A stretch of 20,000 bases of DNA from Chiloscyllium plagiosum (GCF_004010195.1 NC_057749.1:6694956-6714955), one strand, 5' to 3'. Shown: positions 1,775 through 20,000, counted from the stretch's first letter. Made by a program: numbers and translations. The notes: generated by a model from the sequence alone, not told the origin.

Positions 1775-2188
1775 AAGTTATGGGAAGAGACTGGATAGGC
1801 CGGGATGCTTTTCCCTGGATCATAGAAGGCTTGGGGGCAACTACAGAGAGGATTAAACAATCATGAGGAGCATAGATAGAGTGGATAGCCAAGCTCTTTT
1901 CCCCAGAGTAGGGGAGTTCAAAACTGGATGGCATAGGTTAAAGGTGAGAAAGAAAAGATTTAGAAGAGACATGAGGGGCTACTGTTTCATACAGAGGGTC
2001 GTGCGTATCTGGAACAAGCTGCCAGAGGAAGTGGCAGAGGCGGGTATAATTCCAACATTTAAAAGACATTTGGGCAGGTACATGGTAAGGTTTGGAGAGA
2101 TATGGGACTAGTTCAGTTTCTGAAACTTGGTCAGCATACATGTATTGGGTTGAAGGGTCTGTTTCGGTGCTGTGTGGCTCTATGACTC
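1775..2188 (+). mobile_element. 5'-truncated CR1 LINE 3' end
   Basis: ORF 1863-2111 (MRSIDRVDSQALFPRVGEFKTGWHRLKVR...FIQRVVRIWNKLPEEVAEAGIIPTFKRHLGRYM) is the CR1 ORF2 C-terminus. 3'UTR ends GGGTCTGTTTCGGTGCTGTGTGGCTCTATGACTC. Confidence 0.92.
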
Positions 2189-3904
2189 AATGTAGCTTAA
2201 AATTCCATCATGAACAGAGTCTGATGCAATAGATTAGATGGGCTGAATGGCATTTCCTTTCTGTGTAACGTTTCAGTTCTCAAAGCCAATTTTGACCTAT
2301 TATGACACTTTACCAAACTGCAGCCCCAGTAAGATGCCTCATCTGCTGGGACCGGATTTTGGGAATTTCAACTGGTGCCTGACATGACCTTCAACCTCGG
2401 AAGAAAAGCAAAATTCACCTAACTGCCTGATTTTCTCTGCCAGTAGCTGATCCCTTTGAAAATGACTGTGACTGACTCCTGTGGCACTTGCATTGTTTCA
2501 ACACAGATAGACAACCGACAGACAACCATCCCTGTCTTATCACTGGTTTCACTCATGACAATAATCTGCATTCACAGGAACAAGGTCCACAAGTTTAGGT
2601 AGGACATTTATGTTGACCCCAGGAATAGATTAGGTGAAAAATGACAGCCAAAAGGGCAATGAGTGGACAGCTGAGCCTCATTTCATCGTGACCTTAACAT
2701 TTCCCTTGTCCCCCTGCTCAGGGAATCATCCCCTTATGCTTTCTGACCACCTCTAACATAACCGGCGTCGAATAATTGTGTCTCATAATTCACTGAAAAG
2801 CTTATTGAGCTAACTGGGCTTCCTTAAACACGACCTCACCTGAGTTATGAAGTATCTGTGTTCCCATCAAGTGAGTGCTAAAGTAATTGTGTTCCCATCA
2901 AGTACGGCAATCAGGAAACAGGGGGGAGCTGACACTTGGAGCTCTCCTAAAGCAGTAGAGATAACTAAGAATGGAGCTGCCCAACAGGTTGCCTGTTTGA
3001 ATGAAGTTTATAAGAGTGATGACATTCTTAATGGCCAGAGTGCTAACTGGTGAGCTACATTTGTGATATCTGAAGGACCTTTGCCGTACGCTAGAGGATG
3101 TCTGAGAAAAGTAATCTGAATGGGATGCAACAGATTTTCAAGAAATAAAAAGTCGACAGAAGGTGCTTAATGTAAGGGATTGAATCATGAAAATGTGAAG
3201 ACTGGAATACTGTTGTATTCATAGATCTAATGGTGGAATGGTTGAATAATGAAGGTGACATTTAAATGCAAGAGTGTACATGTTCAGAAAATAGCTATTT
3301 CTATTCAGTTTTCAATTGAAGAAATCTCGTATCCTACTGCATCTATCATGTTCCCCTTCCCAATTACACTCTCAGTATTTTTCCTAAACTGATGTGATGA
3401 ATACCATTCTCTCTGAGCCTGTCCCCTCCCCCCATCCCAAGCACTGCACACCTTTGGCACAGACCCACACATTTAATCACTCTTTAAATTCCACCTTCCC
3501 TTTTACCTTCTAAATTCTTGTACAATGTGCTATTGTTTTGAAAATTCTGACCAGAAATCCCACCAAAAGAGCAAATCTTGCTGTGAGCTCTGTGATCAAC
3601 CCTATGATTTATTTCATCCCAGCTGGATTGATAAATAGTTTTGTGTGATTACAATGGACAGATTACAACACACAAACAGCACACAGTCCACACAGCCTCA
3701 TGGGTGTGGATATCTATCACATGACTCTGCTGACCTCGATGTATTCCAGCTACAAATCTACCTTCCCCATTCCTTCATTTCTTCTCCCAAAAGTGACATT
3801 CTTCCAATATGATTCGTGACAATGAGAGGCATTGGCTGATTTGCTTTTGGGAAGTGTGTGGACATCAACTGACATACCAATGGGGCAAACTGGCAGCTTT
3901 CAGA

Positions 3905-3938
3905 TTCCTGATGAAGGGCTTTTGCCCGAAACATTGAT
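3905..3938 (+). ncRNA. Minimal hammerhead ribozyme motif (cleavage triplet decayed)
   Basis: CTGATGA (3908-3914), A, stem II GGGC-TTTT-GCCC, GAAAC (3928-3932), then ATT where sister copies have GTC, consistent with CpG decay. Confidence 0.7.
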
Positions 3939-4041
3939 TTTTTTTTCCTGCTCCTCAGATGCTGCCTGACATGCTGTGCTTTTGCAGCACCACTCTAATC
4001 TTGACTCTAATCGCCAGCATCTGCAGTACCCACTTTTGCCT
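3905..4041 (+). mobile_element. Short Penelope-like terminal element, family A, copy 1 (no inversion)
   Basis: Homologous to copies at 5264, 5570, 12095 and 19579. Probable TSD agctttcaga (3895-3904) / agccttcaga (4042-4051). Confidence 0.8.
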
Positions 4042-5134
4042 AGCCTTCAGAAGCAGCAGCCCTTATCAATTTTAATTCCCTCTTCCAACTCTGCTACATG
4101 GCCTGTTTGAAGGCACAGATGCCAACTAAAGGGCCCATTTCCCAACACAGCTGAGAGGAGTCATCTTGCCAAATGACCAATGCCAGATCTTCCTGTCCTG
4201 TGCCAGTTAGCTCACAGAAACTAGGTATCCCTGAAGCGCAAGGAAACAAGGTGCCACATTCCTCAATGTTTACTAGATTGACGTTACAGAAAGCTTAAAT
4301 GGGTGTCTACTTCATTGTCTTTGTGCAGAATATCACTCTTAGGATTCAGTTCGGAATGTTTCTAATTAAAGCCATGAGAGTGGTGGGGATGGTGGGAATA
4401 TGAATGCTTCAGTATATTTGTTATGTGCATTGATTGTCCATTGTGAATTCTAACATGGGGCTACACATGTAGCAAATGGAATGACAAAATCTGAAGGAAT
4501 AGGATGTTCAAATGTCAACCGGTCTGGCTTTGCCACTGAATACCAGCTTAGCTACTCATCCAATCTCAAGGATCCACTGTACCTGAGGGTTACAGAGACA
4601 TCCAAGCTTCTTCAATTAACAATTTTCACCAAAGATAAATTTAAAATGAACAAAACAGAACAAATTAAGTGGTTCATATGCTGGCACTTATGCATGCTGG
4701 GATAGAAATAACAATCATGCTCATTTTAGTCTCCATTGAACGCAAACACTGCAGCTTTTTCTGATACCAGAAATGAAACACAATCACGACTGGCAACCCC
4801 ACAGCAACACCAATATCCATCGGAGGACCCTTTTCATTTGCTTTGCGATCTTCGCAGAGCTACAATGAGCTACAGTAAATGAGGTAACACAAAATTGCCT
4901 TGCAGTATGCAACCCTTGGCCTGTTAAACCCTGCCGCTCTCACTCACGCCTTGCACTCTTCAACTCTTGTTGAAGTTTATGTTAAGCTTAATGGACTCTC
5001 CCGGGTTGAAGGGGGAATGCAATTGTGGGAATATTGCTTTGCACAAGGTTTTGTAGCGTGCCAGGGGCAATTGTGAAGACGGTCTTAAGTTAAAGCAAAG
5101 GAAAATTGCAACATTTTCTTCCACCTTCACAATT

Positions 5135-5243
5135 TTTTAATCTTTTCTGATCAACTGGTTCAGAGACGTTATTGCACATGTCTGGAGTAGGTGGGTACTG
5201 AACCTGTCTCCTGGTAGGGACCCTACCATTGTATCACAAGAGT
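5135..5243 (-). mobile_element. Short (~110 bp) tRNA-derived SINE, diverged
   Basis: Minus strand CTCTTGTGATACAATGGTAGG (A-box-like)...GGTTCAGTACCC (B-box-like)...GTTGATCAGAAAA. Related copy at 16406-16495. Confidence 0.55.
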
Positions 5244-5263
5244 CCTGACTGCACAGTTTTGAT

Positions 5264-5424
5264 CCAAGGAGCAGGAGAATTGACATTTCGGGCATGAGCC
5301 CTTCTTCAGGAATTCCTTCAGAAACGTCGATTCTCCTGCTCCCTGGATGCTGCCTGACCTGCTGCACTTTTCCAGCAACACATTTTCAGCTCTGATCTCC
5401 AGCATCTGCAGTCCTCACTTTCTC
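5264..5424. mobile_element. Palindromic Penelope-like element, family A, copy 2
   Basis: Inverted arm 5264-5312 joined through GGAATTCC to a forward arm. Perfect 15-bp TSD ctgcacagttttgat (5249-5263 / 5425-5439). Minus-strand hammerhead core CTGAAGA-A-GGGC-TCAT-GCCC-GAAAT-GTC at 5282-5309. Confidence 0.85.
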
Positions 5425-5569
5425 CTGCACAGTTTTGATGACTATATCCCACCAGAAGCTTTATTTCTGTGCTATGTTACAGCATGATCTTGCAGGAGAA
5501 ATCAATTTAGATCAAATATATTGAAATATTTAGGAGAGGAATAAAAAACAATCAAACGTTTTGAGCAGG

Positions 5570-5674
5570 AGGAGAATCAATGTTTCGGGTACGATGCTGT
5601 CTGACCTGCTGTGCGTTTCCAGAACCACATCCATTGACTCTGATCTGAAGCATCTGCAGTCCTCACATCCTGCT
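5570..5674. mobile_element. Inverted/deleted Penelope-like element, family A, copy 3
   Basis: Short inverted arm (aggagaatcaatgtttcggg) plus forward arm gatgctgtctgacctgctgtg...gcatctgcagtcctcac. 16-bp TSD aaa(c/t)gttttgagcagg (5554-5569 / 5675-5690). Confidence 0.8.
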
Positions 5675-6127
5675 AAATGTTTTGAGCAGGGACATTAAGT
5701 AAATTTCTAAGTTGGGGATGGACATGCTTTATTCAATTTAATTTTGAATGGAAGGAGAGACGAGCCAGAATTGAGGGCCAGTCTTAGGGTTTTTGGATGA
5801 AAATTCTAAGTATTGAAGCATTTTAGTGCCTGAGGGGTTTTATTTCTGCGCATTAAACTCTGTAACAATTTCTTTAGCAGATGTCTTTTATAGTGTGGAT
5901 GTGGACTCCGGGAAGAGATGGGACTGGTCTAAAGGCAGGCTAATTCTTCAAGAATCTGAACTGATTTATGGGTTTTATGCTAAAAAATATTTTACCACTG
6001 AATGTAAATCCCGAGGGAAGCAAATAAGTCCTGACGTTCCTTTCCAGCTGCTTGTTGCTCTATCTCAATTGCACTCCTTTCCCATTGCCTATATTGTGAA
6101 TGTAATGAGGTCAGGCAAGTAGACCTC

Positions 6128-6732
6128 TGTCCTTTAACAAGGTTATGTTGTCCTTGGCTTTTTTTTTCAGTGAGCTTGTAAAAGACAGATTCCAAAAAGT
6201 CCAGGTTTTGATAGGTCTTAGAGCCAATTTGATTACAGCTAACAGACACTGCCTCAGGCAAAAGGCTTTTATGTTTTAAAAAATGTTGCTTGTACACTGA
6301 AAGGGGAGTGGTCAGTTCTCCCAGCTCAGCTCTTCTCTGGTTTGGCTTGTTGTAAAAGCTACTGGACCCAAAGAAACAGGTCCAGGCTGACACTCTCTGA
6401 CTTCTCTCCTTTAAGACCCTGTGTTTGATTTTACCTTTTGTGCCAAACGGGTGTTTATTTGAAGTGTTGCAAGTATTTGTTACGGCATCATTAAGCTGGG
6501 AAAATTTGCTGGGTTTGCGGAAAGGTTAAGTTATTCTATATTCTGGTCTCTCTTGTTTGTGTTTCATTTGGTAACCTTGTAAATAAATGCTGTTTTGTTT
6601 GAAACTAAGTGGTTTGACCAGCAGCATTTCTCCTGGAATATCCACCTTAGATCTGCTTAAAACAATGAGCAAAGTTAGGGTCTGGGCTACCTCATTGAAA
6701 TGTTTTGAGGGGATCTGGCCTGGTCCATAACA
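6128..6732 (+). mobile_element. Solo LTR (inner, 605 bp; Gypsy- or ERV-type)
   Basis: TGT...ACA termini, 4-bp TSD CCTC (6124-6127 / 6733-6736), AATAAA at 6582-6587 followed by GT-rich sequence. Confidence 0.8.
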
Positions 6733-6798
6733 CCTCATAGAATATATATTCCCTGATTGGTGCTGTTAATTTTCAATCAGGGAGCCCCTGGCTGATAA

Positions 6799-6919
6799 GT
6801 TTGGAGGGATATGGGCCGGATGCTGGCAGGTGGGACTAGATTGGGTTGGGATATCTGGTCGGCATGGACGGGTTGGACCGAAGGGTCTGTCTCCATGCTG
6901 TACATCTCTATGACTCTAT
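6799..6919 (+). mobile_element. Young, heavily 5'-truncated CR1 3'UTR
   Basis: GTTTGGAGGGATATGGGCC...GGACCGAAGGGTCTGTCTCCATGCTGTACATCTCTATGACTCTAT, homologous to the tails of 619-1182 and 1775-2188. CpGs retained. Confidence 0.9.
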
Positions 6920-7296
6920 ATAAACAGGAGGGTCAGATATCCTTTTCACTTGAGGGAGCTGGATCAGTGTCAAGGACTCTCCATATGTAAATAAAGGGTG
7001 ACTTGCTGGTGGGATATCAGCGGAGTTATTTCAATCCCCTTCTTTCTCTTTGACCATTCTCTCTTCCTCACTGAGCCCCTCCATCCCTCCTGGCCTCTTC
7101 TTCCTCACCGCCCTACTCCTCCACCCAACTGTTTGTTTGTGGAATTGGTGTGGAACATCTCAGGCCAATTGATGGGTGTCCTTATCTCAGTGACAATAGG
7201 CTGACACTGCCTGAGGCCCAAGTTTGAGTGAACCTCAGGATGGAAGCAGACAAGATGCGTTTCTCCCAGTGAGTACTTTTTTTGAAGTCTCCCACT

Positions 7297-7339
7297 CCGC
7301 CATTTTAACCTGGTTAAAAACACTACAGAAACAGGAAGT
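7297..7339. promoter_or_regulatory. YY1 plus ETS motif pair with palindrome
   Basis: CCGCCATTTT (YY1 consensus) 7297-7306, palindrome TTTTAACC-T-GGTTAAAA 7303-7319, ACAGGAAGT (ETS) 7331-7339. Confidence 0.35.
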
Positions 7340-7859
7340 ACAGGGACATATCAAACATGATTGGATATTAGCATGGCTTAAATCCCAAACCCTGAGTAAT
7401 GATAATTTTATATATATACATATATTAGTGACTTATATTGTTCACTTAATAGCATCACTTTTGACTTGAAATGGAGCGAAAATGCTCTGATGATCCGATG
7501 GGATTGTGCTGGGATTTTGTGATAGAGAAGCATACTGGCAATTTTGTGTCACATTTTTTCAAAAGGATTTTGATGTAATGGGATGATATGCGATAATACT
7601 GGAAATGCATGAACATCAGGTACTCTGTTATGACTCAAGTGAAAAAGGTCCCTGAATTTCTTTGCTACTTTTGTAGATAATCATTAAAAATGGAGACATG
7701 AAAAAGGCATCACTTGCTCACATAGATACTCATAACCAGTGGTGAAATAGCAAGGAGATTGCAGGAATAAAGCCAACTGTATATCCATTTTTTTTCTCAA
7801 GAATATATTACACATGTAAGAAGGCACCACAACACGTAACTCACACTACAACAGCAAAA

Positions 7860-8107
7860 AGGTCAAAGGTCACGATCTGGTCAAGGTAGACCAATCAGCA
7901 CTCCAGGTTTACTTACAACGACTACTAACGGTACCATGGGCAATAATATTCACGCACGTCACAACTGCAAATAAAAAACGTGACCCCACGTCATGCAACG
8001 CAGCGACAGTCTGTCACGTGACGTCATCAAATGACACCTTCACTGCAAACGGGCAACTTACGGGTCGGGACATGTCTCCCCCATGACTGTTAGAGTTGCT
8101 AGGTTAC
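7860..8107. promoter_or_regulatory. CpG-rich cis-regulatory module (promoter or enhancer)
   Basis: Perfect DR1 AGGTCA-A-AGGTCA 7860-7872, CCAATCAG 7891-7898, CCACGTCA 7986-7993, GTCACGTGAC 8013-8022 overlapping TGACGTCA 8019-8026, X-box-like GTTGCTAGGTTAC 8095-8107. About 14 CpGs in ~200 bp by eye. Confidence 0.7.
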
Positions 8108-8554
8108 ATCACAGAGTTTGAGAATGACTTGTGGTCATCTGGAGCTATGATTAGGCCCTGCCTGGTTTGGTTGTGGTTAGTTGTAAAAGAAGAAAAAATG
8201 TTTGGAGATGTAGAGCAATCCTGTTATCTTGACTTTGTATTTTTTTTTTAAAATGTCTTTTCTCTCTAGTCTTTCTTTCTATGCTAACAAAGCATTTTAT
8301 CTTGGTTGTACAAAACTGTTTCAACAACAAAAAAAGACATTCAACAGGGCGCAACAACAGAACTTACACAACAGAACAAGCTAATAATGTGCTCAAAGGG
8401 CATTATTACATCATTGGGTTCAACACTTGACTGACCCTCAGGACTGTACCAGAGCTTTACTTAATTGCCACAACATCTTACATCTCCAAGTAATTACTTC
8501 AGCACTTAAGCCTCACTTGGAATGTTGTGTCCAGTTCTGGCTAATACATTTTAA

Positions 8555-8702
8555 GGAATGTAGTTCTTAATTCTAAAGGAATCAAATGGTTTTGAGGAGA
8601 AAGTGGGAACAGAATACTGAGTTGGATGATCAGCCAAGACCATATTCAATATTGAAGCTGATATGAGGGGCTGAATGGCCTCCTATTATCTATGTTTCTA
8701 TG
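8555..8702 (+). mobile_element. CR1 3' end of a second subfamily
   Basis: GATCAGCCAAGACCATATT...GGGGCTGAATGGCCTCCTATTATCTATGTTTCTATG tail. Confidence 0.75.
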
Positions 8703-8822
8703 ATTTCAGGACCTTGGAGAAGGTGTAAAATACATTCCTCTGGATGCTAATGGGGATGAGTACTTTACTCATATGAAGAAAGTGATGAAACAGGGATTGT
8801 TCTTCTGCAGCATAGAATTTTT

Positions 8823-9110
8823 GATTAGATTCCCTACAGTATGGAAACAGGCCCTTCAGCCCAACAGGTCCACACCGACCCTCCAAACAGCAACCCACCC
8901 AGACCCATTTGCCTCCGGCTAATGCAGCTAACAGTATGGGCAATTTAGCGTGGCCAATTCATCTGACCTGCACATCTTTGGGTTGTGGGAAGAAACCGGA
9001 GCAACCCACGCAGACACGGGGAGAATGTACAAACTCCACACAGACAGTCACCCAAGTCTGGGATTGAACCCAGGACCCTGGTGCTGTGAGGCAGCAGCGC
9101 TAACCACTGT
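8823..9110 (-). mobile_element. HE1-type tRNA-derived V-SINE
   Basis: Minus strand: tRNA head with B box GGGTTCAATCCC, central GTGTGGAGTTTGTACATTCTCCCCGTGTCTGCGTGGG domain, CR1-like tail ending GGGAATCTAATC. Confidence 0.9.
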
Positions 9111-9749
9111 GTTGAGGGGAGGTTCGAGATATGCTTGAAATTGTAAGGAGTCTGACTGGGCAAAAAAAGGGAGTAATTGCTTTCACTTGCAGGAGTGACA
9201 GTAACCAGAGGACACAGAGATTTACAATGATTTGGCAAAAGGGACAGAGGGGAAAGGATGGGAATTATTTTCTACACAGCAAGTTATTATTATCCGAATG
9301 GTCTGCGGAAGCAAATTTAATAATAAATTTCAAGAGAATTGGATATGTATTTGAAAGGATAAATTGCTGGGCAGAGTGGGACAAATTGGTTAACACTTTT
9401 TGAACACTGGCACTGGCAAATGAGGAGGAGGATACCGTAAAACCTAAAGGTTTTTTTATCGTGAAAGCATTACATGCTTTGCAGCAGATTTTGCCACGTA
9501 AACCAGTTATTTTCTTAAAAAAAATCAAAGCTATTTTCAGAATGGGAAATTGAGTCCAATGAATCTGTCTCTTTTTAATAGATTTCTACCCTCTTGACCT
9601 TGGAATCGCACTCTTTTGTTCCTCTTTGCACAGGACAATTAGATACGTGCACTGTGATCCTATCCATTTGTCCAGACTGAACTCAATTCCTCAGGCGACT
9701 GCGCTTAGCTTTAAGAATACCTGCTCCTATGCAATTCTTCATCAGTAAA

Positions 9750-9973
9750 TGCACTACGTGGCTTGGCACTGACTAGTGTATGCTGGGGAGGTCCCAGATT
9801 TAATTAATGATCTGCATACTAATGCATAGCACAAGGAATGTGCTCGGTCTAAGGAAGCAAAACACAATACAGTCAAGTGTCCCATTTCTGATTACTTTTC
9901 ATGAATCCCTTATTAGAAGGTGTTGGACAAGTGGACTGTGAAGACTCAGTTAATGCATTCATGTGAAGAATAG
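9750..9973 (+). mobile_element. Highly decayed ancient SINE-like fragment
   Basis: Faint resemblance to LF-SINE-like shark repeats (GGAGGTCCCAGATTTAAT, ATGTGAAGAATAGG), from memory only. Confidence 0.25.
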
Positions 9974-10263
9974 GTATTTGAGTGCAGCATTGGAGAGCTA
10001 CCTTGCACTGCTGCAATGATTACCAGCATCAATTTAACACACTGTTCTTATTTGAAAACCATTCTGCTGTATCATGGAGAAACTATTGCATTTGAATTAA
10101 TTGAATTTAGAGTTTCTGCTCTCAAGTGGCTACATCAATTCAATTTTATTGAACGGTACGTTCCATGCGGTTAGGAATTTTACTGAAATTTGCAGCATTA
10201 TGTTGGACCATCTCCTCTTAAACAACTGGTGCCATTATATTAAAGTTACAGGAATCTTTAGGA

Positions 10264-10549
10264 ACGGCATGGTGGCTCAGCAGTTAGCATGGCTGCCTCA
10301 CAACACCGGGGACCCAGGTTCAATTCCACCCTTGGGTGGCTGTGTGGAGTTCCTATATTCTCCATGTGTCTACTTGCATTTCCTCTGGTTGCTCTGGTTT
10401 CCTCCCACAGTCCAAAGTTGTGCTTTAGCCATGCTAAATTGCCCATAGTGTACAGGGTTACAGGGATGGATCTGGGTGGGATGCTCTTTAGAGGGTCATC
10501 ATGGACTTGATGGGCTGAACAGCTTGCTTCCACACTGTCCAGATTCTAT
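10264..10549 (+). mobile_element. HE1-type V-SINE, near full length, diverged
   Basis: A box TGGCTCAGCAGTT, B box GGTTCAATTCC, GGTTTCCTCCCACAGTCCAAAG, CATGCTAAATTGCCC, CR1-like tail. Confidence 0.9.
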
Positions 10550-10932
10550 CTTAGTGTTGAATGCAAGATAACACAATTTAGCAGCTATTAAAGAAAATGA
10601 ATGGTAAAACACCTGGACATTAATCATTTACACGAAAGTGGCCACTTTGGAATGTAATTATTCTTAGGCCTAATACAGGAGGTCATTAGAGATTATGGAA
10701 AAAGAGGCGATATTGGACTTCCAAAGTCGATAGAATATAGAGAGACATTAAAACACTAATGATTAATTTCATTGCAACACAAAAGGTTAAATGGGGTTAT
10801 TTGATTTAAAAGATCATTGCATCCTCTAAATGATTTTTAAAAGTGTAAATTTAGGCTTAAAACTAAAGCTGAACAGTAGACAATTATTTTGTAGACAAAA
10901 AGTTACACATGTAAGGAATGCACTAACCTAGT

Positions 10933-11085
10933 AAAGCTAAATCCATCATGTTCAAGAAGACATTTGGTAAGTATATTGAGAAGAGGAATGGGTAAAATAA
11001 GACAGCTGTGATGTGGTGTTAGAACTGGCAGATATATGATGGGCTAAACAGCCTCATACTGTGTTGAACCTTACCGGATTTTATG
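10933..11085 (+). mobile_element. Decayed CR1 3' end
   Basis: MFKKTFGKYI-like ORF2 terminus followed by GATGGGCTAAACAGCCTC tail motif. Confidence 0.5.
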
Positions 11086-12094
11086 AAAAGTTAAAGATCA
11101 CACAACAACTCACTGGATTGCGACTCACTAAAGGCACCTGAAAGCTTTGTTACAGTCCTGACAGGTTTGTTCGAGAGGTCTGATCCCAGGACCCAGTCCC
11201 TGGCTGTCAGGTCAGGGGATAGCCATGAGTATAACAGCCTCCTTCAGTCAGCTTCAGGCATTACCGGGACTGCTGCAGTCGGCTGGCTTGTAACAAGCAA
11301 CATAAGCCACCTGTAGCCAGCCAGTCATCTCTCCACGGTTTGAGTGGGAGTCAAGACTTAGCAAGCACTGCCCAAATAGTAACCCCAACCCAGGATGCCA
11401 ATTTGTTGCAATGGAACCAAGTACTGAAGCACTCGGTTTTCTTGGGTCATTACAGAGGGCTGGTGTAGCATCATATTCAATCTCATTTTCACAACTTCAA
11501 TCAGCAGTGTCAATAGATGAGATCACCTGTGTGCATTGTAGATATACCATTCGCCCTTTTGTTAATTGGGTTTTGTGGAAAGGAAAGCATAAGAAGGGTA
11601 CAATAAAACAAACATCGTCAATGGCTTCTTAGCAACAATGCTAAAATGTTTGCTCTTGAATGGCAGAGGGGTAAACCAGCCGACTCCTGTTCCTATTCCT
11701 TACGACCTTTGACTGTGTTGGATTATCTGAACAAATACAGAACCTCATTTTAGTTCCATTGTCATGAGAACTCATTGATATCTATGTGGTCCCAGTTCTC
11801 TGCCAGTGACAACTTTGATTTGGCCTTTTCTTTTGTGTTCGATGAGAAAACGAAACCATTTATTCCCACCTTATTATGTGGTTTAATAGTTACCAGGGCA
11901 GAATTTGACCTTTGCATTAAAAGAAAAGGGAAGGAGGGGAAACTTCACTTGGAGTGTTACCTTATTCGAACACAAGTATCTAATGGCACAGACTTGGATC
12001 TGATTACAAGGGATCAGGTTAAAGAATCCATTTGCTGCTACTTTCACTTATCATGGAAGTAGGTTGTAAGTAGGTTTTGGGAGTATTTTTGTAT

Positions 12095-12282
12095 AATTGT
12101 GTTGCTGGAAAAGCGCAGCAGGTCAGGCAGCATCAAAGGAACAGGAGAATCGACGTTTCGGGCATAAGCCCTTCTTCAGGAATCCTGTTCCTGCTCCTTG
12201 GACGCTGCCTGACCTGCTGCGCTTTTCCAGCAACACATTTTTCAGCTCTGATCTCCAGCATCTGCAGCCCTCACTTTCTCCT
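12095..12282. mobile_element. Young palindromic Penelope-like element, family A, copy 4
   Basis: Near-perfect inverted repeat (tgtgttgctggaaaagcgcagcaggtcaggcagc, 12098-12131, versus gctgcctgacctgctgcgcttttccagcaacaca, 12204-12237). Perfect 13-bp TSD agtatttttgtat (12082-12094 / 12283-12295). Confidence 0.88.
12148..12183 (-). ncRNA. Minimal hammerhead ribozyme, core intact
   Basis: Minus strand AUUC-CUGAAGA-A-GGGC-UUAU-GCCC-GAAAC-GUC/GAUU. Palindromic ACGU helix III. Predicted cleavage between 12152 and 12151. Confidence 0.78.
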
Positions 12283-12386
12283 AGTATTTTTGTATGGTTT
12301 CACTTGATAGCAGGTAATTCCTGTTCCCTCTCCTCCTCATTTGTTCCAAAAAACACTTCTTGGCAGCCAGTGGGTGAGGATGGCCA

Positions 12387-12636
12387 GGGGGAAATCTCAA
12401 CAAGTGTCTGGCAAAAGCTAACAATAGCGTCACGTGCAAATAAGCTGCAAGTTTGCCTTGAGGTGGACAGCGCGCCTGGGCAAGGTAGCTCCTCATCCAT
12501 CTGGGACAAGTGATTGGTGTGGAACTCCCAGGAATGTCGGGGGCGGGGAGGGGGGGAGGTGAGGGATTTGGCTAGTTTACTCAGAGCGAGGAAGACCAGA
12601 GAAGAATGAGGAAGACTGAGTGAGGGGAAAGTCCCC
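12387..12636. promoter_or_regulatory. Promoter-like module with NF-kB, E-box, CCAAT and GC boxes
   Basis: GTCACGTG 12429-12436, TGATTGG 12511-12517, GGGGCGGGG 12540-12548 plus G-tracts, GGAAAGTCCC (reverse complement of GGGACTTTCC) 12626-12635, kB-like sites at 12389-12398 and 12520-12529. Confidence 0.6.
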
Positions 12637-12717
12637 TAACACTCTGGGTGGAGAGCAGGAAGCTGCCATTACCAGTTACAAAGTTGTACCTTTTTCCAGT
12701 CTATTTAGCCCATGCTT

Positions 12718-12846
12718 CATTACTAAACTGCCACTATTTAATAAACTGCATTAAAATCATCATTATTAAACTGCTGGTTTTTAATAATCAACTTTATAAC
12801 CATCATTATGAAACCATTGGTTTTTAATAAACTACTTTATAATCAT
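12718..12846. repeat. Degenerate 3 x 43 bp AT-rich minisatellite
   Basis: Units start at 12718, 12761 and 12804. Each reads CA-TTA(T/C)(T/G)AAA-N9-TTTAATAA-...-CAT with no indels. Confidence 0.85.
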
Positions 12847-13279
12847 CCATGTGTTCACCACTCCCCACCTCTCCTGTTTTTTTTGGTTAAACTGTGACTC
12901 TCAAACTCAAACTTTGGAATGTTTAAAACAGCTAATATTGAGTCACTGAGTGAATAAGTCCATTTCTGACTCCATCACTTAAATCACCAATGCACCCCGT
13001 TATGGAGAACTTGCCCTCATCCTGCCAGCTGTGTTCTTGTTTTGGAAGGTTGAGGGTTCAAATCTTGCCCCAGTGACCTGGGCACACAAGTTAAGCCTGA
13101 ACTTTACTCTGAGTGTATTACCTTTCTCCCATCTTGGGTGGACATGAGAGATACTGAGGAGTTCTCCCTTTTGTAATCTCAACTAACAGCACCATATAAA
13201 AACAGAATTGTCTGGTCACGACCTGATGGCTGTTTGGAGGAACGTTGCCATGCGCACACACTTACTTTATCCTTTCCTG

Positions 13280-13605
13280 GCATGTGGACAAAATCAGCAT
13301 TTTAATCCATCCCTTGCATTGAGTGGCTTGTTGTACCATTTCCTATGACATTTAAGACTCGACCACTGTCAGGAGTCAAATGTAGGCCAGACCAGGTAAG
13401 GATAGAAAATTTTCTTCACGAAAGTCAACCTGTTGGGTTTTTGCAATACTCATCCAAGGTTGCCTGGTCACTGTGACCAAGAAAAACTCCTAATTCCAAA
13501 ATATATAATTGAGATTAAATTCCAACAACTACAATGGTGAGATCTGCACCCATGACCCTGATAGTGTTATTTGGTATTCTGGATTTAGTGACATTACCAC
13601 TTCAC
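13280..13605 (-). mobile_element. Decayed L2-tailed tRNA SINE (same family as 16991 and 17710)
   Basis: GGAGTCAAATGTAGGCCAGACCAGGTAAGGAT (13371-13403) is the reverse complement of ATCCTTACCTGGTCTGACCTACATGTGACTCC near 17208-17240. Confidence 0.7.
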
Positions 13606-13654
13606 TATGTTTGTCCCTATAGGGCTGGCATTGTGTTTCCAGCACTGAAGCACA

Positions 13655-13984
13655 CAGAGCCCCTACAGTGTAGAAGCAGGCGGTTCAGCCCATTGAGTCC
13701 ACACCGCACCTCCAAAAAGTATCCCACCCTACCCTATAACCCTGCATTTCCCATAGTTAATCCACTTAGCCTACACATCCCTGGACACTCTGGGACAACT
13801 TAGCATGGCCAATCCACCTAACCTGCACATCCTTGGACTGTGGGAGGAAACCGGAGCACTGGGAAGAAAACCACGCAGACATGCGGAGAATGTGCGTACT
13901 CCACATAGTCGCCTGAGGGTGGAATCAAACTCGGGTCCCTGACGCTGTGAGGTCGAAGTGCCAACCACTGAGTCACTGGGCTGC
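13655..13984 (-). mobile_element. HE1-type V-SINE, near full length
   Basis: Minus strand tRNA head GTGACTCAGTGGTTGGCAC...GAGTTTGATTCC, V-domain core, CR1-like tail. Confidence 0.9.
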
Positions 13985-14060
13985 ATTGATAAATACTTAA
14001 TTTGGACGTGCAGTGCATTGCAATAGCCTGAGATTGTGAAAATGCAATTCTTTCGGTTAT

Positions 14061-14120
14061 TTAGAGTCATAGATTCACAAAGTGTAGAAAAGGCCCTTTG
14101 GCCCATTGAGTCTGCACGAA
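14061..14120 (-). mobile_element. Short CR1/SINE 3' tail fragment
   Basis: TAGAGTCATAGATTCACAAAGTGTAGAAAAGGCCCTTTGGCCCATTGAGTC matches the shared CR1/HE1 tail. Confidence 0.65.
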
Positions 14121-14241
14121 CAATAACTACCCCTAAAGGCGTGTTAATCACTTATTCCTGTATTTTGCTGCTGTTTTCCAGATTTAGCCAGCAACCTAAT
14201 GAAGGTCTCCTCCTGAGCTGTAACCAGTCTATCAATTTGGG

Positions 14242-14472
14242 AATGGAAACTGGAAGAACTGCTGATGCTGTAAAGAAGTTTCTGGAAAGATTCTGCGGGT
14301 CTGGCAGCATCTGTGGAGAGAGAAAGCAGTTAACATTTCAGGTTGAGCGAGCCTTCCTCAGAACTAGGAACTGGAATTCTGAGGAAGGGTCACCAGACCC
14401 GAAATGCTAACTCTGATTTCTCTCCACAGATGCTGTCGGACCTGTTGAACTTTTCCAGCAATTTCTGTTTTT
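14242..14472. mobile_element. Palindromic Penelope-like element, family B, with a decayed hammerhead core on each arm
   Basis: Inverted arms (cagcatctgtggagag / ctctccacagatgctg). Plus core CTGAGGA-A-GGGTC-ACCA-GACCC-GAAAT 14379-14405, mirrored at 14329-14361. TSD gtctat(c/g)aa(t/c)ttggg (14227-14241 / 14473-14487). Confidence 0.8.
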
Positions 14473-15555
14473 GTCTATGAACTTGGGGTCTATTTGGTAG
14501 AGCTTACTGGGCAGTGACTTTCCAAACTTGGAACTTCTGAAAGGGTTGCTAAAGTAATTCAGGAACAGTTTGTTGTAAATCACACTGCACTATGCCTGGT
14601 GTCAGACTGAGAGTGAGCTGTAAGTCTCCACAAGAAACAGACAATAAGCGAGACTCGATACCAACTATGTTTCTCTGGGAAGTAACTTTCCATTTAGTTG
14701 CTTTAGTACAGTATGGAAGGGACATATGAACATTCGGTCTCTTACTCCCAGTTAATTAAATGATCACAGTGTGACGCCAGCAGTGTGCAGTTTCCCAAAC
14801 AACTTTTTAACACTCTCTGGCCCATTTTATGATTTCATCCTATGTCCACTCTGAGCAAAAATGTGGTGCTACAAAGGAAAACTTTCATGACCTTACCGAA
14901 TCACATTTTCCTTCATGACAGAAAGTATTATTGCACTCATCAAATTGCTATAAACTTCAACAAATATAGGAGACAGCACGCACCCTGCAAAGGTTTGGTC
15001 AGTTGCATTATGCTGTTACTAAATGGATGTTATCCCCCGCATAAACTTGGGGGGGATGAAAAATCAAATAACTTCAATGAAGCAGAGGAATTTGGAATGT
15101 TAAAGGGACCTTACAATAATGAAGGATCTTTTAATCCTCTTACATGAGCTGATAAACGCACTGCCTTCAATACAACAATCAAAGGCATAATGTCCCAATC
15201 AAAGCTTGAAATGGGTTTTTATAAATAAGATAACAAAATAGGTCAGTGTCTCTTTAACATTGGAGCTGAAGTCTAAATACTAACTGGTTTGACCACAAAT
15301 GTCTAACTTGATGATTTCTTCATTTTAAGAATACGTTTTAGTCTGGGGATTGAAGTTTTAAAAAGTGGAAGTATTTGGTTTAGGAGGGTGACTGAACACA
15401 CTTAAAGGGTTTGCAATCCATTGGGAGTCTTTGTTTATGTAATAAAGGGTGAAGTGGGTAATATTGAACAATGGGGCTTGAAGAACATTTTTGCAAAATA
15501 TGGTATTGTTAGTTGTACTTGCTTTGTTTAATTCTTGGACATTAATAGTTAGTGC

Positions 15556-15770
15556 TTTTTGAGAAGATTTGTAGCTCAGGTTGGTGATAAGTATGTAAGT
15601 TAGCTCGCTGAGCTGGAAGGCTTGTTTTCAGATGTTTTGTCATCATGACTAGATAACATCATCAGTGAAAGCCTCTGGTGAAGCGCTGGTGGTATGTCCC
15701 GCCTCTCTATTTGTAAGTCTTCGTTTCTGAAGGTGGGTGATGTCATTTCCTGTTCGTTTTTTCAAAGGAA
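15556..15770 (-). mobile_element. Penelope-like terminal fragment, family C, with decayed hammerhead motif
   Basis: Minus strand CA-CTGATGA-T-GTTATC-TAGTCAT-GATGAC-AAAAC-ATC-TG (15629-15667): 6-bp stem II, with G12 and GUC altered in a CpG-decay pattern. Boundaries approximate. Confidence 0.65.
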
Positions 15771-16336
15771 GGTAAACTGTCTCAGTTAATAATTGGACAT
15801 CTGAATCTTTTCCCCCCCACAAATAGCCTCCCTCAAGATCTTCCTGGCTGCTGTTCTGTTCAGGTGGGCTTTGCAAGATGGAAGGGTCCTCTCTTTACCT
15901 TTTAGAAAGAGCAGCGCTGTTCCTGAGGACAAAGGAATGATTGCACCTCATAGCCATTCTGAAGTAGGACATGTTGCTACACAGCAAGATCCCACAGGCA
16001 GCCTCAAGATCAAATCAGCTGAGTTGAAATCTGACATGGAAACACTGACTATAGTTTTCCTTTAAAGTTGCAAATTTATTTATTCCTATGCTTCATGACG
16101 TGAAAATATTCATCCAGTTTAAAAGTATATCAGAATGCCATTTTGATTTGGCAAGTTATGACCTGGAGATTTGATATTGTTTTATCCTTAAAATCAAATC
16201 ATCTCTCAAGTTTGATGAACTTGGGCATTATTTTTCTGCACACTATTTTGCACTGGACAAAATAATCCTTTTTAAAAGACATCAATCTCCACAGACAACT
16301 TGCATTGTCAAGTTTATGTGACTTCATCGGAACAAC

Positions 16337-16351
16337 TGCCCCCTCTTGTGG
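16337..16351 (-). promoter_or_regulatory. Candidate CTCF site
   Basis: Minus strand CCACAAGAGGGGGCA versus consensus CCASYAGRKGGCRS (2 deviations). Confidence 0.4.
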
Positions 16352-16405
16352 TACAGATGTGAATCACATCTATCTATCAACTCGATCACATCAGGTTCCT
16401 GTTGA

Positions 16406-16495
16406 TATTTTTAATCAACCTGCCTCCTTTGGAATAGGTAGGACTTGAACAGGTAAGCTTTCCAGCTCAGAGATAGGGAAACTACTACAACGGCC
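16406..16495 (-). mobile_element. Short tRNA-derived SINE, decayed (family of 5135-5243)
   Basis: Minus strand GTAGTTTCCCTATCTCTGAGC...GTTCAAGTCCTACC...CAGGTTGATTAAAAA. Confidence 0.5.
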
Positions 16496-16546
16496 TCAGC
16501 TCTATTTGGAACAAAGCCTATACAAATTGGCATTTACTTCTGATTA

Positions 16547-16803
16547 GTGGCTCAGTGGTTTGCACTGCTGCCTCACAGCAACTGGGCCCCAGGTTCGATT
16601 CCAGCCTCGGACGACTGTCTGTGTGGAGCTTGCACATCCTCCCTGTGTCTGCGTGGGTTTCCTCCCACAGTCCAAATATGTGCAGGTTAGGTGAGTTGGC
16701 CATGCTAAATTGCCCATAGTGTTAGGTGCATTAATCAGAGGGAAATGGGTCCGGGTGGGTTACTCTTCGGAGGGTTGATGTGGACTTGTTGGGCCGAAGG
16801 GCC
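16547..16803 (+). mobile_element. HE1-type V-SINE
   Basis: A box TGGCTCAGTGG, B box GGTTCGATTCC, conserved core. Tail truncated at GGGCCGAAGGGCC. Confidence 0.92.
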
Positions 16804-16990
16804 CATTATTTTCCCTCCCGCAGCACCATCATTGACTGATATTTTCTATCTCCCACCGGTTGAAATGTCAGGAGCCAGGTAACATCATGAGATTAGTAAG
16901 AGCTTGCTGTCTCATAGTGTAGACAACCCGTGCTGTTACCCCACATTGGTGATACTAGGATAAAAAAAATCAACGTCTTGGTCAGTATTA

Positions 16991-17337
16991 GGGAGGCGAT
17001 GGCCTAGTGGTATTATTGCTGGACTGTTAATTCAGAGACCCAAGTAATGCTCTGGGCACCTGGGTTTGAATCCCACCATGGCAAAAAGATGGAATTTAAA
17101 CTTAATTAATATCCGGATTTAAGAATCTAATGATGACCATGAATCCAGTATCAAGTATTGGAAAAACCCATCTGGTTCAATAACCCCCTTTAGGGAAGGA
17201 AACTGTCATCCTTACCTGGTCTGACCTACATGTGACTCCAGACACACAGCAATATGGCTGACTCTTAACTGCCCTCTGGGCAATTAGAGATGGGCAATAA
17301 GTCCTGCCTAGCCAGTGACACCCTGATCGAATAAAGA
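16991..17337 (+). mobile_element. tRNA-derived SINE with L2-type 3' tail
   Basis: A box TGGCCTAGTGG, B box GGTTTGAATCCC. Aligns end to end with 17710-18030. A-rich end. Confidence 0.85.
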
Positions 17338-17361
17338 AACAAATTAATAAAGGGGAAAAGA

Positions 17362-17690
17362 AAGAGGTTTAGGAGCTTCGAAAAGGGGAGAGAGAAACGA
17401 AGCGATTCAGCTGAAAGTATGGGATGGAGAAACGGAAATCAGAGATGTGAAACAATTGGAGTGGCCCAGAGGTATCCACAAATAAATCTGGAATGGCAGA
17501 TGGTGACAAGAAAACATAAAACCATTGAGGGGTTTAGGATCGAAGGAGGGCATTTTAAAATACAGGTGTTGCCATTTGGGTGCCCATGTCAGTGAGCATT
17601 GAGAGGGGAACTGGGAGATCAGGATTCAGCAAGATTCAGTATTCAGGCTGCATGACTAAAGTAACTCATTTAGAGATGCTTGCATCAAAT
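17362..17690 (-). mobile_element. Highly diverged L2-like LINE fragment
   Basis: Purine-rich segment with motifs (GAGGTTTAGG, CAGCTGAA, CCATTGAGGGGTTT, ATTTTAAAAT, GCCCATGT) resembling antisense L2 ORF2 end, from recall. Confidence 0.4.
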
Positions 17691-17709
17691 TGAAGAGTCC
17701 TGTAGAGTG

Positions 17710-18030
17710 GAGAGGTGATGGCCTAGTGGTATTATCACTGAACTATTAACCCCAGGTAATGGTCTGGGGACCTGGTTTCAAATCCTGCCATGGCAGCTGG
17801 TGGAGTTTGAAACCAATCAAAAATCTGGAAATAACAGTCTAACAATAAACATGAATTGATTGTCATAAAAAAACCCACCTGGTTCACTAATGCCCTTCAA
17901 GGAAAGAAACTGCCATCCTTACCCGGCAAGGTCTGGGCCCACAGCAATGCAGTTGACCCTTAAATGCCCTCTGGGCAATAAATGCTGGCCTGGCCAGTGA
18001 TGCCCTTATCCCATCAATGAATACAAAAAA
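17710..18030 (+). mobile_element. tRNA-derived SINE with L2-type 3' tail, second copy
   Basis: GAGGTGATGGCCTAGTGGTATTAT head, AAACTGCCATCCTTACC, GGCAATAAATGCTGGCCTGGCCAGTGATGCCC, A-rich tail. Confidence 0.85.
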
Positions 18031-18713
18031 AACTACCAATTTACCAACTTTCTTTGCCTGTCCTGTTCTTGCAATTATAGCCAGAATTGCTTTATTTCCC
18101 AGTGACTCATACTGCCTGATACTGTAAGTGAAAGTACCTGAAGTAAATCGACACAGTATACATACTGACACACATACAAACTAATGCTCCACTACCCTGA
18201 TGTCTAATGCTTAAACTCAATAAGGACAAGTATTCAAGAAATCAAAAAAACACAGGTTATGCATAAATTAGAAACCAAACGTACCTTGGCAATGGTTTTA
18301 AATGAGCAAACATTGAAATATAAGACAAAACAAACAGTCTTGTTGAACACAGACATTATTCCCTGCATCTCACACTCCAGTTTAGTCTCAAGGTAGGAGT
18401 TTCCCTGTTATCATGAGGTTGGGTTGGACAGGGCAACCTTTCACTGCATCTGGGAGAGCAGTGACCTGAGCACCATCTAGTGGGGATGTGCCAGCATTTC
18501 AGGCAAGACACAACTGCACTAAATACTGGAGGTTAAAAGGGAAATCTTAAGGCAGCCTCAGCTCCCCTGGGTTGACGTTGCCATACTTCTGACACAAACA
18601 TTTTTACGCGCATTTTGTGTGGTGCAGCTGTTGGGGGATGCACATTCGTATTCGAGGTCACTGTGACAAAGCTGGATCATATGGAACCGTTTGGACATTT
18701 AAATGATTTCTTC

Positions 18714-18917
18714 GTTGCACATTCTCCCAGTGTCTGCGTGGGTTTCCTTCCACGGTCCAAAGATGTGCAGGTCAGGTGGATTGGCCATGCTAAATTGCCC
18801 ATAGTGTTAGGTGCATTAGTCAGAGGGAAATGGGTCTGGGTGGGTTACTCTTCAGAGGGTCGGTGTGGACTTGTTGGGCTGAAGGACCTGTTTCCACACT
18901 GTAGGGGAATCTAATCT
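18714..18917 (+). mobile_element. 5'-truncated HE1-type V-SINE
   Basis: Starts in the central domain (TTGCACATTCTCCCAGTGTCTGCGTGGG) and ends GGAATCTAATCT. Confidence 0.92.
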
Positions 18918-19578
18918 TAAATTAACGCAACACTTACAATATGGTTCACCTACTGTTTGCTGAAGGTCAAGTAACTTTTTAGAAAGAAGTTCAGCAAAGC
19001 TTTTAGGGAGTTTAGGTTTATAGTCTATGAATGCTGGAAAACCTGGTTTTGAAGAGGCCTCTATCTAAGACAGTACCAACACCCCTTTCCTGACACATTG
19101 TTTTACAGACGTACGTAAGGAACACTCCCCCCAACTCCCTCTCTCAGCAGAAGTTTCTGGGATCTGTTAAACATCAGTACCACTGACTAATGTATAAATC
19201 CTGCAAAGCTGAACTCTTTCCAAAGATTCAGATCCAGCCCACTTTCAATTCAAGCTGAAGATCTTCCATCACCCTTGGCAATGATCAGCAATTTGATTTT
19301 GTTGATAGGAAACACTGGACCATGAGCAGTCACCAAATTCTGTCACATAAAAACAAAATACTGCAGTGGCCGGAAACAGACACACAATACGCTGCAGAAA
19401 CTCAGCAGGTCTGGCAGCTCATGCGGAGTGAGAAACAGAGTTAACGTTTGTGTCTTCCTCTGAAGTTCTGAGAAAGGGTCGGATTAGACACCAAATGTCC
19501 AATAGAACTCCTGAAGTTCTGAATAAGTCATGCTGGACTAGAAATGTTAACTTCATTTTTCTCTCTCCACAGATGTTG

Positions 19579-19722
19579 AGAAAGAAATACAGCAGGGGAG
19601 TTGACGTTTCGAGCATAAACCCTTCATCAGGACATTCCCCGGATGCTGCCTGACCTGCTGTACTTTTCCAGCGCCACCGTTTTCGAGTCTGACTCTGTAG
19701 CGTCTGTAGTCCTCACTTTCTC
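19579..19722. mobile_element. Inverted Penelope-like element, family A, copy 5 (nested)
   Basis: 18-bp TSD ctctctcca(c/a)agatg(t/c)tg (19561-19578 / 19723-19740). Forward arm ends gtcctcactttctc like its sister copies. Confidence 0.8.
19600..19632 (-). ncRNA. Minimal hammerhead ribozyme, core intact
   Basis: Minus strand UC-CUGAUGA-A-GGGU-UUAU-GCUC-GAAAC-GUC. Stem II kept through G-U wobbles, stem I weak. Confidence 0.68.
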
Positions 19723-20000
19723 CTCTCTCCAAAGATGCTGTCAGACTTGCTGAATTTCTCCAGCATTCTGTGCATCTGTATCCAATTTCATGCTTTATTC
19801 TCAGACCCTTGGCCGAAAGGAGTATCTTTTGCTTTTGTGCATGAGAAGAAGCCTCTCTACAACTCTCTCCAAAGATGCTGTCAGACTTGCTGAATTTCTC
19901 CAGCATTCTGTGCATCTGTATCCAATTTCATGCTTTATTCTCAGACCCTTGGCCGAAAGGAGTATCTTTTGCTTTTGTGCATGAGAAGAAGCCTCTCTAC
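19723..20000. repeat. Exact 140-bp tandem duplication (second copy runs off the window)
   Basis: 19723-19860 is identical to 19863-20000. Confidence 0.95.

Follow-up and report, generated by a model that had tools for sequence, protein, structure and literature searches.

A discrete hammerhead-headed unit of about 130 nt dispersed in Chiloscyllium plagiosum, probably copied in trans by Penelope-like enzymes

A 20,000-nucleotide stretch of Chiloscyllium plagiosum DNA (GCF_004010195.1 NC_057749.1:6694956-6714955; hereafter the window, numbered from its first letter) carries five copies of a short repeat with a hammerhead ribozyme (HHR) motif. Judged from its sequence, the repeat is a discrete, non-coding unit of about 130-138 nt with a predicted minimal type-I hammerhead at its 5′ end. 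The reading favoured here, with a probability of about 65%, is that of a pseudo-long terminal repeat (pLTR)-type unit of about 130 nt that is copied in trans by the enzymes of Penelope-like elements (PLEs). Three lines of evidence bear on it: the boundaries and target-site duplications (TSDs) of the five copies, the inverted arms that most of them contain, and the ends of a very large number of related copies in contigs.

The window is vertebrate-like in composition (42% GC, CpG observed/expected 0.27) and dense in interspersed repeats. The five homologous inserts (copies 1 to 5) share one 3′ end: a 24-nt terminus recurs at 5402, 5650, 12258 and 19700 with 0-3 mismatches (0.00 expected), copy 1 being an older, more diverged relative (75% in window repeat family D3, 78-79% by blastn). 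A 19-nt core, GATGCTGCCTGACCTGCTG, has ten matches in the window at three mismatches or fewer against 0.01 expected, and the HHR box CTGANGA-N13-GAAA is matched exactly four times where 0.04 matches would be expected. In their 3′ domains copies 2 and 4 share 95% identity; every other pair lies at 75-86%. Each copy is flanked by a TSD, 10-18 bp long across the five, whose two sides agree at 9/10 positions in copy 1, 15/15 in copy 2 (14 plus one ambiguous base), 15/16 in copy 3, 13/13 in copy 4 and 16/18 in copy 5. The copies terminate in CTTTCTCC(T), and none of the five has a poly-A tail. Four B-box-like matches occur in the window (9060, 10317, 16592 and 17063), none of them inside a copy; a tRNA scan of the window returned no tRNA and no tRNA-like head on the copies; and Pfam found no domain in the 14 open reading frames (ORFs) scanned, of 21 in the window of at least 90 aa. 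The original prediction of five homologous inserts with a common 3′ end, TSDs of 10-18 bp and no ORF domain, RNA polymerase III (pol III) box or poly-A tail is thus borne out. Classical short interspersed elements (SINEs) are recognised by pol III A/B boxes or a small-RNA-derived head and by a tail of poly-A or of long interspersed element (LINE) type, and the copies do not fit this description. A scan of public collections with the 19-nt core returned 48 metagenome, 38 prokaryote-genome and no viral loci; these 86 loci were rejected as chance matches because blastn of copies 1, 2 and 4 gave no alignment longer than 47 nt.

The copies differ in how their 5′ parts are arranged. Copy 1 (3904-4041, plus strand) is the sole contiguous sense unit, with its HHR boxes at 3908-3931 followed by the 3′ domain, and approximate TSDs at 3895-3904 and 4043-4052 (AGC(T/C)TTCAGA). 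In copy 2, an inverted 5′ arm on the minus strand (5264-5313, unit positions 1-50, HHR boxes at 5286-5309) ends inwardly in ATTCCTGA and is separated by a 7-nt filler (5314-5320) from a direct 3′ body on the plus strand (5321-5425, from G12 of GAAA to the 3′ end); its TSDs, TGCACAGTTTTGAT, lie at 5250-5263 and 5426-5439. Copy 3 (5570-5673, plus strand) consists of an inverted piece at 5570-5592, which begins in the stem II loop and holds a partial HHR only, and a direct body from 5593 (GATGCTG), between TSDs of about 16 bp at 5554-5569 and 5675-5690. Copy 4 has an inverted 5′ arm (12095-12183, minus strand, unit positions 1-89), whose HHR, with boxes at 12156-12179, is intact (CUGAAGA-A-GGGC/GCCC-GAAACGUC); its direct 3′ body (12184-12281, plus strand) begins near unit position 36 and extends as far as the 3′ end, and its TSDs, AGTATTTTTGTAT, lie at 12082-12094 and 12283-12295. 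Copy 5 (19579-19723, plus strand) was inserted into an older related element and has an inverted arm to 19632 with minus-strand HHR boxes at 19607-19630, a short filler, a direct body from about 19639 and a TSD of about 17-18 bp (16/18).

Four of the five copies therefore hold an inverted 5′ arm, covering unit positions 1-50 in copy 2, 19-41 in copy 3, 1-89 in copy 4 and about 3-45 in copy 5, and their direct bodies begin at about unit position 25, 50, 36 and 43, respectively. Since the break points differ from copy to copy, each structure arose separately at its own insertion. Copy 1 alone has its HHR box on the plus strand; in copies 2, 4 and 5 the box is on the minus strand and thus inverted relative to the body, so that a transcript of one of these three does not contain HHR and 3′ domain in one sense. 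The idea that every HHR is the sense head of its insert consequently fails, as three of the four are inverted arms. It had also been claimed that four copies begin just before the HHR, and here the shared end stands while its position does not. The common 5′ limit, (A)TTCCTGA, is the outer end of copy 1 and the inner end of the inverted arm in copies 2, 4 and 5 (ATTCCTGA in copies 2 and 4, TCCTGA in copy 5), and these limits agree within 2 nt. The same limit recurs in both arms of an older related pair at 14274-14466. The copies in this window are products, not sources, because they are decayed and three of them were rearranged on arrival.

The head-to-head combination of an inverted arm and a direct body is the published insertion signature of PLEs, and the copies display the traits of Penelope-like insertions: an adjacent inverted 5′-truncated copy, 5′ truncation and a short TSD. 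From these features we infer the action of PLE enzymes, the priming steps and ATTCC as the 5′ end of the RNA. In such a pathway, a PLE reverse transcriptase (RT)/GIY-YIG protein acting in trans would cut the two strands of an AT-rich target at points 10-18 bp from each other. First-strand cDNA would begin at the fixed 3′ site of the unit, the RT start, and proceed toward the RNA 5′ end, often halting inside or just 3′ of the HHR hairpin. Priming from the other cut strand, at an internal site, would yield a second cDNA that reaches the RNA 5′ end, and the outcome of the two cDNAs would be an inverted HHR arm placed head-to-head with a direct body.

A different machinery could leave similar traces: the family might be a SINE moved by a LINE of CR1, L2 or RTE type through a LINE-derived 3′ tail, with inversions produced by L1-style twin priming and an incidental HHR-like head. 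Inversions at the 5′ end with duplicated or deleted junction segments resemble L1 twin priming, and the TSDs and the fixed 3′ end without poly-A would fit as well. However, the copies contain no pol III A/B box or tRNA-like head, and the motif has the sequence characteristics of PLE minimal HHRs (PMC4209133). In addition, head-to-head pLTR pairs, partial tandems and a 35-nt back-joint (found in 4 and 6 contigs, see below) are PLE traits according to the available portions of PMC8557442 and PMC3846280. Mobilisation by a LINE is thus very doubtful.

The boundaries of the unit can be followed well beyond the five copies. Sequences were matched to window positions 5150-5750 (copies 2 and 3) at no less than 80% likeness in four samples: contigs of one organism (X1, organism A), contigs of a second organism (X16), raw single-cell poly-A RNA-seq reads (X22) and a possible RNA assembly (X23). 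The matching pieces numbered 79,149 in X1 (30,610 of them at no less than 95% likeness), 80,397 in X16 and 9,021 in X23, and the family is indeed very abundant, as had been supposed from its density in the window. None of the X22 reads matched window 5150-5750. The RNA nature of X23 is a guess, and its depth over the unique flanks is 0, so that it is uninformative on expression. An X16 contig spans the right junction of copy 3 (5639-5750, with one other letter and one gap), which makes this insertion common to both organisms; at copy 2, 25 nt of insert were covered at the junction, below the bridging threshold. The left flank of copy 2 (5150-5212) is itself repetitive, with a summed depth of 244-861 in X1 and 1,020-3,668 in X16; the summed depth of the unique spacer at 5444-5548 is 0-7 and 0-36, respectively.

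For loose ends, at which likeness to the window stops, the counts refer to the best-supported rows listed. Behind 5425/5426 there were 937+1,639 = 2,576 in X1 and 1,210+1,953 = 3,163 in X16, and the sequence beyond this point in other copies is AT-rich with an agreement of 0.33-0.35. Loose ends that run into AT-rich DNA of low agreement imply a sharp 3′ end and AT-rich targets. Just 3′ of the unit there is a faint common start (AGTTAAT/AGTTTAT/AGTTGAT, then AT-rich sequence; agreement 0.33-0.36), which may be a target preference of the endonuclease. Before 5321/5322, loose ends numbered 1,165+511 = 1,676 in X1, 1,144+519 = 1,663 in X16 and 199 in X23, with the consensus ATTCCTGATGAAGGGCTTATGCCC and 5-6 letters further upstream that vary between rows. 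Behind 5313 there were 506 in X1 and 613 in X16, with an agreement of 0.35. Taken together, the loose ends at 5321/5322 and 5313 indicate many other copies with an HHR in direct orientation, in which likeness mostly stops at ATTCC, four nucleotides ahead of CUGAUGA. Longer inverted arms in other copies are marked by a loose end before 5262 (63 in X23).

These ends bear on the view that the inserts are simply random 5′-truncated tails of long autonomous PLEs, the common 5′ limit being an accident of sampling or an RT pause. Heavy 5′ truncation is known for PLEs (in the available part of PMC8557442), direct bodies do begin at varied unit positions (about 25, 36, 43 and 50), depth drops toward the HHR, and a weak shared upstream consensus hints at longer copies. 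Against this, four of the five copies in the window stop at one base to within about 2 nt, as do the two arms of the pair at 14274-14466, and all five of the listed rows before 5321/5322 keep the full 5′ half of the HHR and then lose agreement. The sole other internal break among the rows listed lies at 5390 and separates subfamilies; it is no truncation. Random truncation is accordingly a poor explanation of the family. A discrete 3′ end and a predominant 5′ limit, both in the window and genome-wide, argue that the family is not a set of random truncations, as the original prediction had it.

Abundance also bears on a further alternative, in which recombination at the DNA level between the paired pLTRs of a full-length PLE would have left each copy as a solo pLTR. 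In size and content the unit does match a pLTR, such a deletion would retain the TSDs, and solo pLTRs are reported in the accessible part of PMC3846280. Inverted arms with copy-specific break points would nevertheless go unexplained, and tens of thousands of pieces would need comparable numbers of full-length insertions. Recombination hardly comes into consideration as the source of the family.

Some contigs carry joints between units. The exact head-to-tail junction of a 3′ end with ATTCC (joint 5313<->5426, opposite strands) occurs in 20 contigs of X1, 23 of X16 and 1 of X23, a back-joint 5426->5321 occurs in 13, 9 and 1, and a 35-nt terminal back-joint, 5426->5392, was found in 4 and 6 contigs. 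These rare joints, which may correspond to the partial tandems and the terminal tail of 30-40 bp known from PLE insertions, occur in none of the five window copies. Such joints would be expected from a retrozyme-like cycle, a variant of trans copying by PLE enzymes that differs in the template alone: tandem transcripts would be cut by dimeric HHRs and ligated into a circle, which a PLE RT would copy around once, giving the unit, or repeatedly, giving tandems. On a circle the ends of the unit are adjacent, which would explain a 5′ limit away from the cleavage site as well as the head-to-tail junctions and the 5426->5321 back-joints. This model is published for animal retrozymes (available text of PMC7229834 and bioRxiv 10.64898/2026.07.22.740005). 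On the other hand, tandem joints amount to tens of contigs against thousands of 3′ ends that enter unrelated DNA, and the five window copies are all dispersed monomers. Minimal HHRs also cleave poorly in vitro (PMC4209133), and the PLE of Anolis carolinensis known as PAc yields no reads ending at the cut site and inserts with mutated HHRs (PMC11167929). We consider a circular template unlikely overall, although it would account equally well for the adjacency of the unit ends in the rare tandems.

The motif itself was aligned from eight HHR segments of the window. Besides helix I (AUUC/GAUU), its layout has the CUGAUGA box, one bulged A, a helix II of 4 bp and the GAAA box; ACGU stands where helix III would be, and C17 directly precedes the predicted cut. 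Of the features by which minimal HHRs are defined (PMC4209133), the following are present: the core boxes, the extra base between A9 and 10.1, the G10.1-C11.1 pair and a palindrome at 15.2-16.2 without helix III. The definition further names a helix I of 4-5 bp, compensatory stem changes and self-cleavage of the dimer after H17. The extra base is A in all eight sequences (alignment column 12), and the G10.1-C11.1 pair (columns 13-28) is G-C in six of the eight, G-U in one and unpaired in one. The ACGU palindrome that had been noted at the helix III position is intact in copies 4 and 5 only; copies 1, 2 and 3 hold ACAU/AUGU instead, the products of CpG decay of ACGU. CpG decay within ACGUCG implies that the genomic copies are not under selection. 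In the proposed stem register 76.5% of cells are paired, compared with at most 45.6% when the 3′ partners are slid, and helix I is paired in 71.9% of cells across the alignment. A relaxed HHR scan added both arms of the 14274-14466 pair and one unrelated match at 15606-15673.

Folding of the 45-mer of copy 4 predicts the HHR secondary structure at -7.7 kcal/mol, next to a minimum free energy of -8.2 kcal/mol, and its homodimer at -24.1 kcal/mol (RNAcofold) against 2 x -8.2 for the monomers. The segment around the predicted cleavage site of copy 4 (12147-12159, minus strand; GAAACGUCGAUUC) is a 13-nt quasi-palindrome and so offers an interface wider than ACGU. Since pairing of this quasi-palindrome takes in core bases, the predicted homodimer is not the catalytic form. 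Rfam returned mir-505 (E 0.12) and mir-335 (E 0.22) as weak matches; both fall on hairpins of the inverted arms, are far below gathering scores, and were rejected.

Several results weigh against the interpretation as a hammerhead-headed unit copied by PLE enzymes. Covariation in the motif does not exceed that of shuffled alignments, of which 281/500 reach the percentage paired and 424/500 the number of pairs changed on both sides. Two pairs are suggestive, one at the base of helix I (4-37, U-A in three sequences and C-G in two) and one in helix II (16-25, C-G in three and U-A in three); in both, the change sets families apart. Helix I of the main family forms just three of four pairs. No Rfam hammerhead family recognises the motif that the original prediction had read as one, either at E<=1 in the 20 kb or at E<=10 in 81 nt of copy 4; this miss is expected because the motif is without helix III, and it still counts as a failed test. 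None of the arm ends in the window falls at the predicted GUC cleavage site, which means that ribozyme cutting, itself a putative activity, does not define the copies. The consensus behind 5313 is alike in X1 and X16 (GAGG.TTGTGGG), so that a minority of copies may run further upstream and the 5′ limit is predominant, not absolute; this upstream consensus is not present in the window. Summed depth is lower over the HHR bins than at the 3′ end (2.37-2.97 M against 5.29 M in X1 and 6.2 M against 13.7 M in X16, about 45%), from which it follows that many copies are without an HHR. Finally, the window holds no PLE ORF (no Pfam match in the 14 scanned of 21 ORFs of at least 90 aa).

The part of the unit 3′ of the HHR is about 95 nt long and ends at a fixed point some 100-105 nt beyond the HHR. 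Within it, a hairpin is predicted to be enclosed by a long-range stem, GGAUGCUG/CAGCAUCU, and the terminus reads ...CUUUCUCC(U). In the consensus fold of this domain two of 20 pairs are compensatory, too few to back the structure, and the fold of copy 1 has a z-score of -1.26, which is not significant. An ATG (GGATGCTG) opens a putative coding frame of 26 codons that reaches the 3′ end of the unit. The same frame is found in copy 2 at 5346-5425 and in the corresponding segment of the other copies, with its ATG within the conserved GGATGCTGCC, and the surrounding core is kept across both families; by analogy, the frame may parallel the pLTRs that hold the start of a PLE ORF.

An older related family lies in the same window. 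The pair at 14274-14466 consists of two decayed units on opposite strands, head-to-head and 13 nt apart, both beginning TTCTGAGGA; its arms, each 90 nt in length, show 77% complementarity, and HHR boxes (CUGAGGA-A-GGGUC/GACCC-GAAAU) are present on both strands. A cluster at 19392-19578 holds decayed units with three HHR-like boxes, of which two are mutated in the core; at 19466/19467 its arms likewise meet head-to-head where the HHRs start. This cluster was the target of copy 5, whose TSD lies within the older family's conserved CTCTCTCCA.AGATG.TG segment. Further along the window, 19723-19860 and 19863-20000 form a tandem of 138-nt stretches, 100% identical at a spacing of 140 nt, that reaches the end of the window. 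The tandem belongs to the older HHR-related family and begins at CTCTCTCCAAAGATGCTG, downstream of the place of that family's HHR; it could be a partial tandem of PLE type, a recent duplication or an assembly artefact. For a 43-aa frame of this family (19735-19863) no candidate was found among longer proteins. Its one match among 1.84 billion representatives was rejected: the protein, 55 aa long, is built of tandem repeats with 8/23 identity in each, and its Pfam matches are meaningless.

Other repeats in the window are of different kinds. A tRNA-related, SINE-like repeat that is unrelated to the hammerhead family occurs on both strands (8826-9109, 10272-10548, 13656-13977, 16547-16817 and 18715-18902) and has B-box matches such as GGTTCGATTCC at 16592. 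About 430 nt downstream of copy 4, at 12717-12847, an AT-rich unit of 43 nt is present three times in tandem (73-76% to the reference copy).

PLE retrotransposition is poorly understood with respect to where copies end, how inverted and tandem forms originate and what role the hammerhead plays. Dispersed minimal HHRs, solo and inverted pLTRs and PLE-dependent retrozymes have already been described, and the present family does not change current concepts. A family that comprises only an HHR and a cDNA start, with tens of thousands of independent insertions, would nonetheless be a natural dataset on the mechanics of PLE insertion, from which 5′ limits, target preference, duplicated tails and the break points of inversions could be read. 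The in vitro PLE system of PMC11167929 would gain a compact substrate, and much of the "unknown" or "truncated Penelope" annotation in this genome may be one discrete unit. A bolder suggestion is that the family is a self-sustaining SINE-like lineage made of a PLE pLTR alone, a module of about 130 nt with a minimal HHR and an RT-recognition/start site, which has multiplied to 10^4-10^5 copies in two or more related vertebrates, perhaps via a small circular RNA. This suggestion is tentative, and we would bet against it. If it were true, no smaller retrozyme-type element would be known, and the minimal cis-requirements for Penelope retrotransposition would have a natural definition.

Among known systems, the minimal HHRs in the pLTRs of metazoan PLEs are the closest counterpart of the motif. 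They number in the thousands, mostly as dispersed single motifs and sometimes as opposite-strand pairs, with vertebrate examples in fishes, the coelacanth, Xenopus and reptiles, and the dispersed single motifs are viewed as probable truncated PLEs (PMC4209133). The motif described here shares with them the CUGANGA...GAAA boxes, the A9/10.1 extra base, the G10.1-C11.1 pair, the ACGU palindrome without helix III and a short helix I (PMC4209133). Two differences stand out: helix II has 4-5 bp here and 7-8 bp in the minimal HHR of Schistosoma, and the copies, unlike the dispersed motifs of that report, form a defined unit with sharp ends (PMC4209133). A search of two supplementary files of PMC4209133 with four motif-derived strings and two cartilaginous-fish terms gave no match.

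At the level of insertions, the likeness is to PLE pLTRs. The available part of PMC8557442 describes PLE insertions with heavy 5′ truncation, partial tandems, an adjacent upstream inverted 5′-truncated copy and an optional tail of 30-40 bp. In Adineta vaga, as far as the accessible text of PMC3846280 goes, pLTRs of 181-218 bp include the ORF start and suffice in cis, and solo and inverted pLTRs carry TSDs of 8-10 bp. With the pLTRs of these two accounts the family has in common a terminal module of about 130-220 bp, head-to-head copies with overlapping junctions and short TSDs; the optional 30-40 bp tail and cis-sufficiency for mobilisation in trans are pLTR traits as well. It differs from them in that pLTRs, in the same portions of PMC3846280 and PMC8557442, are defined on elements with an RT/endonuclease ORF, whereas this family is known from the non-coding unit alone, and in that its copy number is far above the low numbers given for Adineta vaga in what is available of PMC3846280.

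The biochemistry of PAc offers a mechanistic parallel (PMC11167929). There, the site of cDNA initiation is fixed and internal, lying 111-118 nt into the ORF and just past the HHR, and both strands of an AT-rich target are cut and extended. HHR cleavage is dispensable for in vitro insertion: HHR mutants insert, and no RNA-seq reads end at the cut site. The PAc start lies about 110-120 nt past the HHR region, close in place to the fixed 3′ end found here 100-105 nt past the HHR, and two-strand cutting and extension at an AT-rich target match the head-to-head arms and AT-rich flanks of the present copies (PMC11167929). The PAc start lies in the ORF of a coding element, whereas the unit has just the 26-codon putative frame.

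The last comparison is with the animal non-LTR retrozymes, which are non-coding, HHR-bearing, PLE-associated and found as monomers and tandems (available text of PMC7229834 and bioRxiv 10.64898/2026.07.22.740005). A role as non-autonomous PLE partners has been proposed for them, and one cartilaginous fish is among their hosts in the accessible part of bioRxiv 10.64898/2026.07.22.740005. In the portions of both sources at hand, retrozymes have a canonical type-I HHR with loop-loop contacts, occur mainly in tandem arrays of about 170-450 bp and are expressed as circular RNAs (PMC7229834; bioRxiv 10.64898/2026.07.22.740005). A canonical type-I HHR in tandem arrays, by which animal retrozymes are recognised, is not what the present copies show, tandem joints being rare: the family has a minimal HHR, is shorter than retrozymes and is overwhelmingly dispersed.

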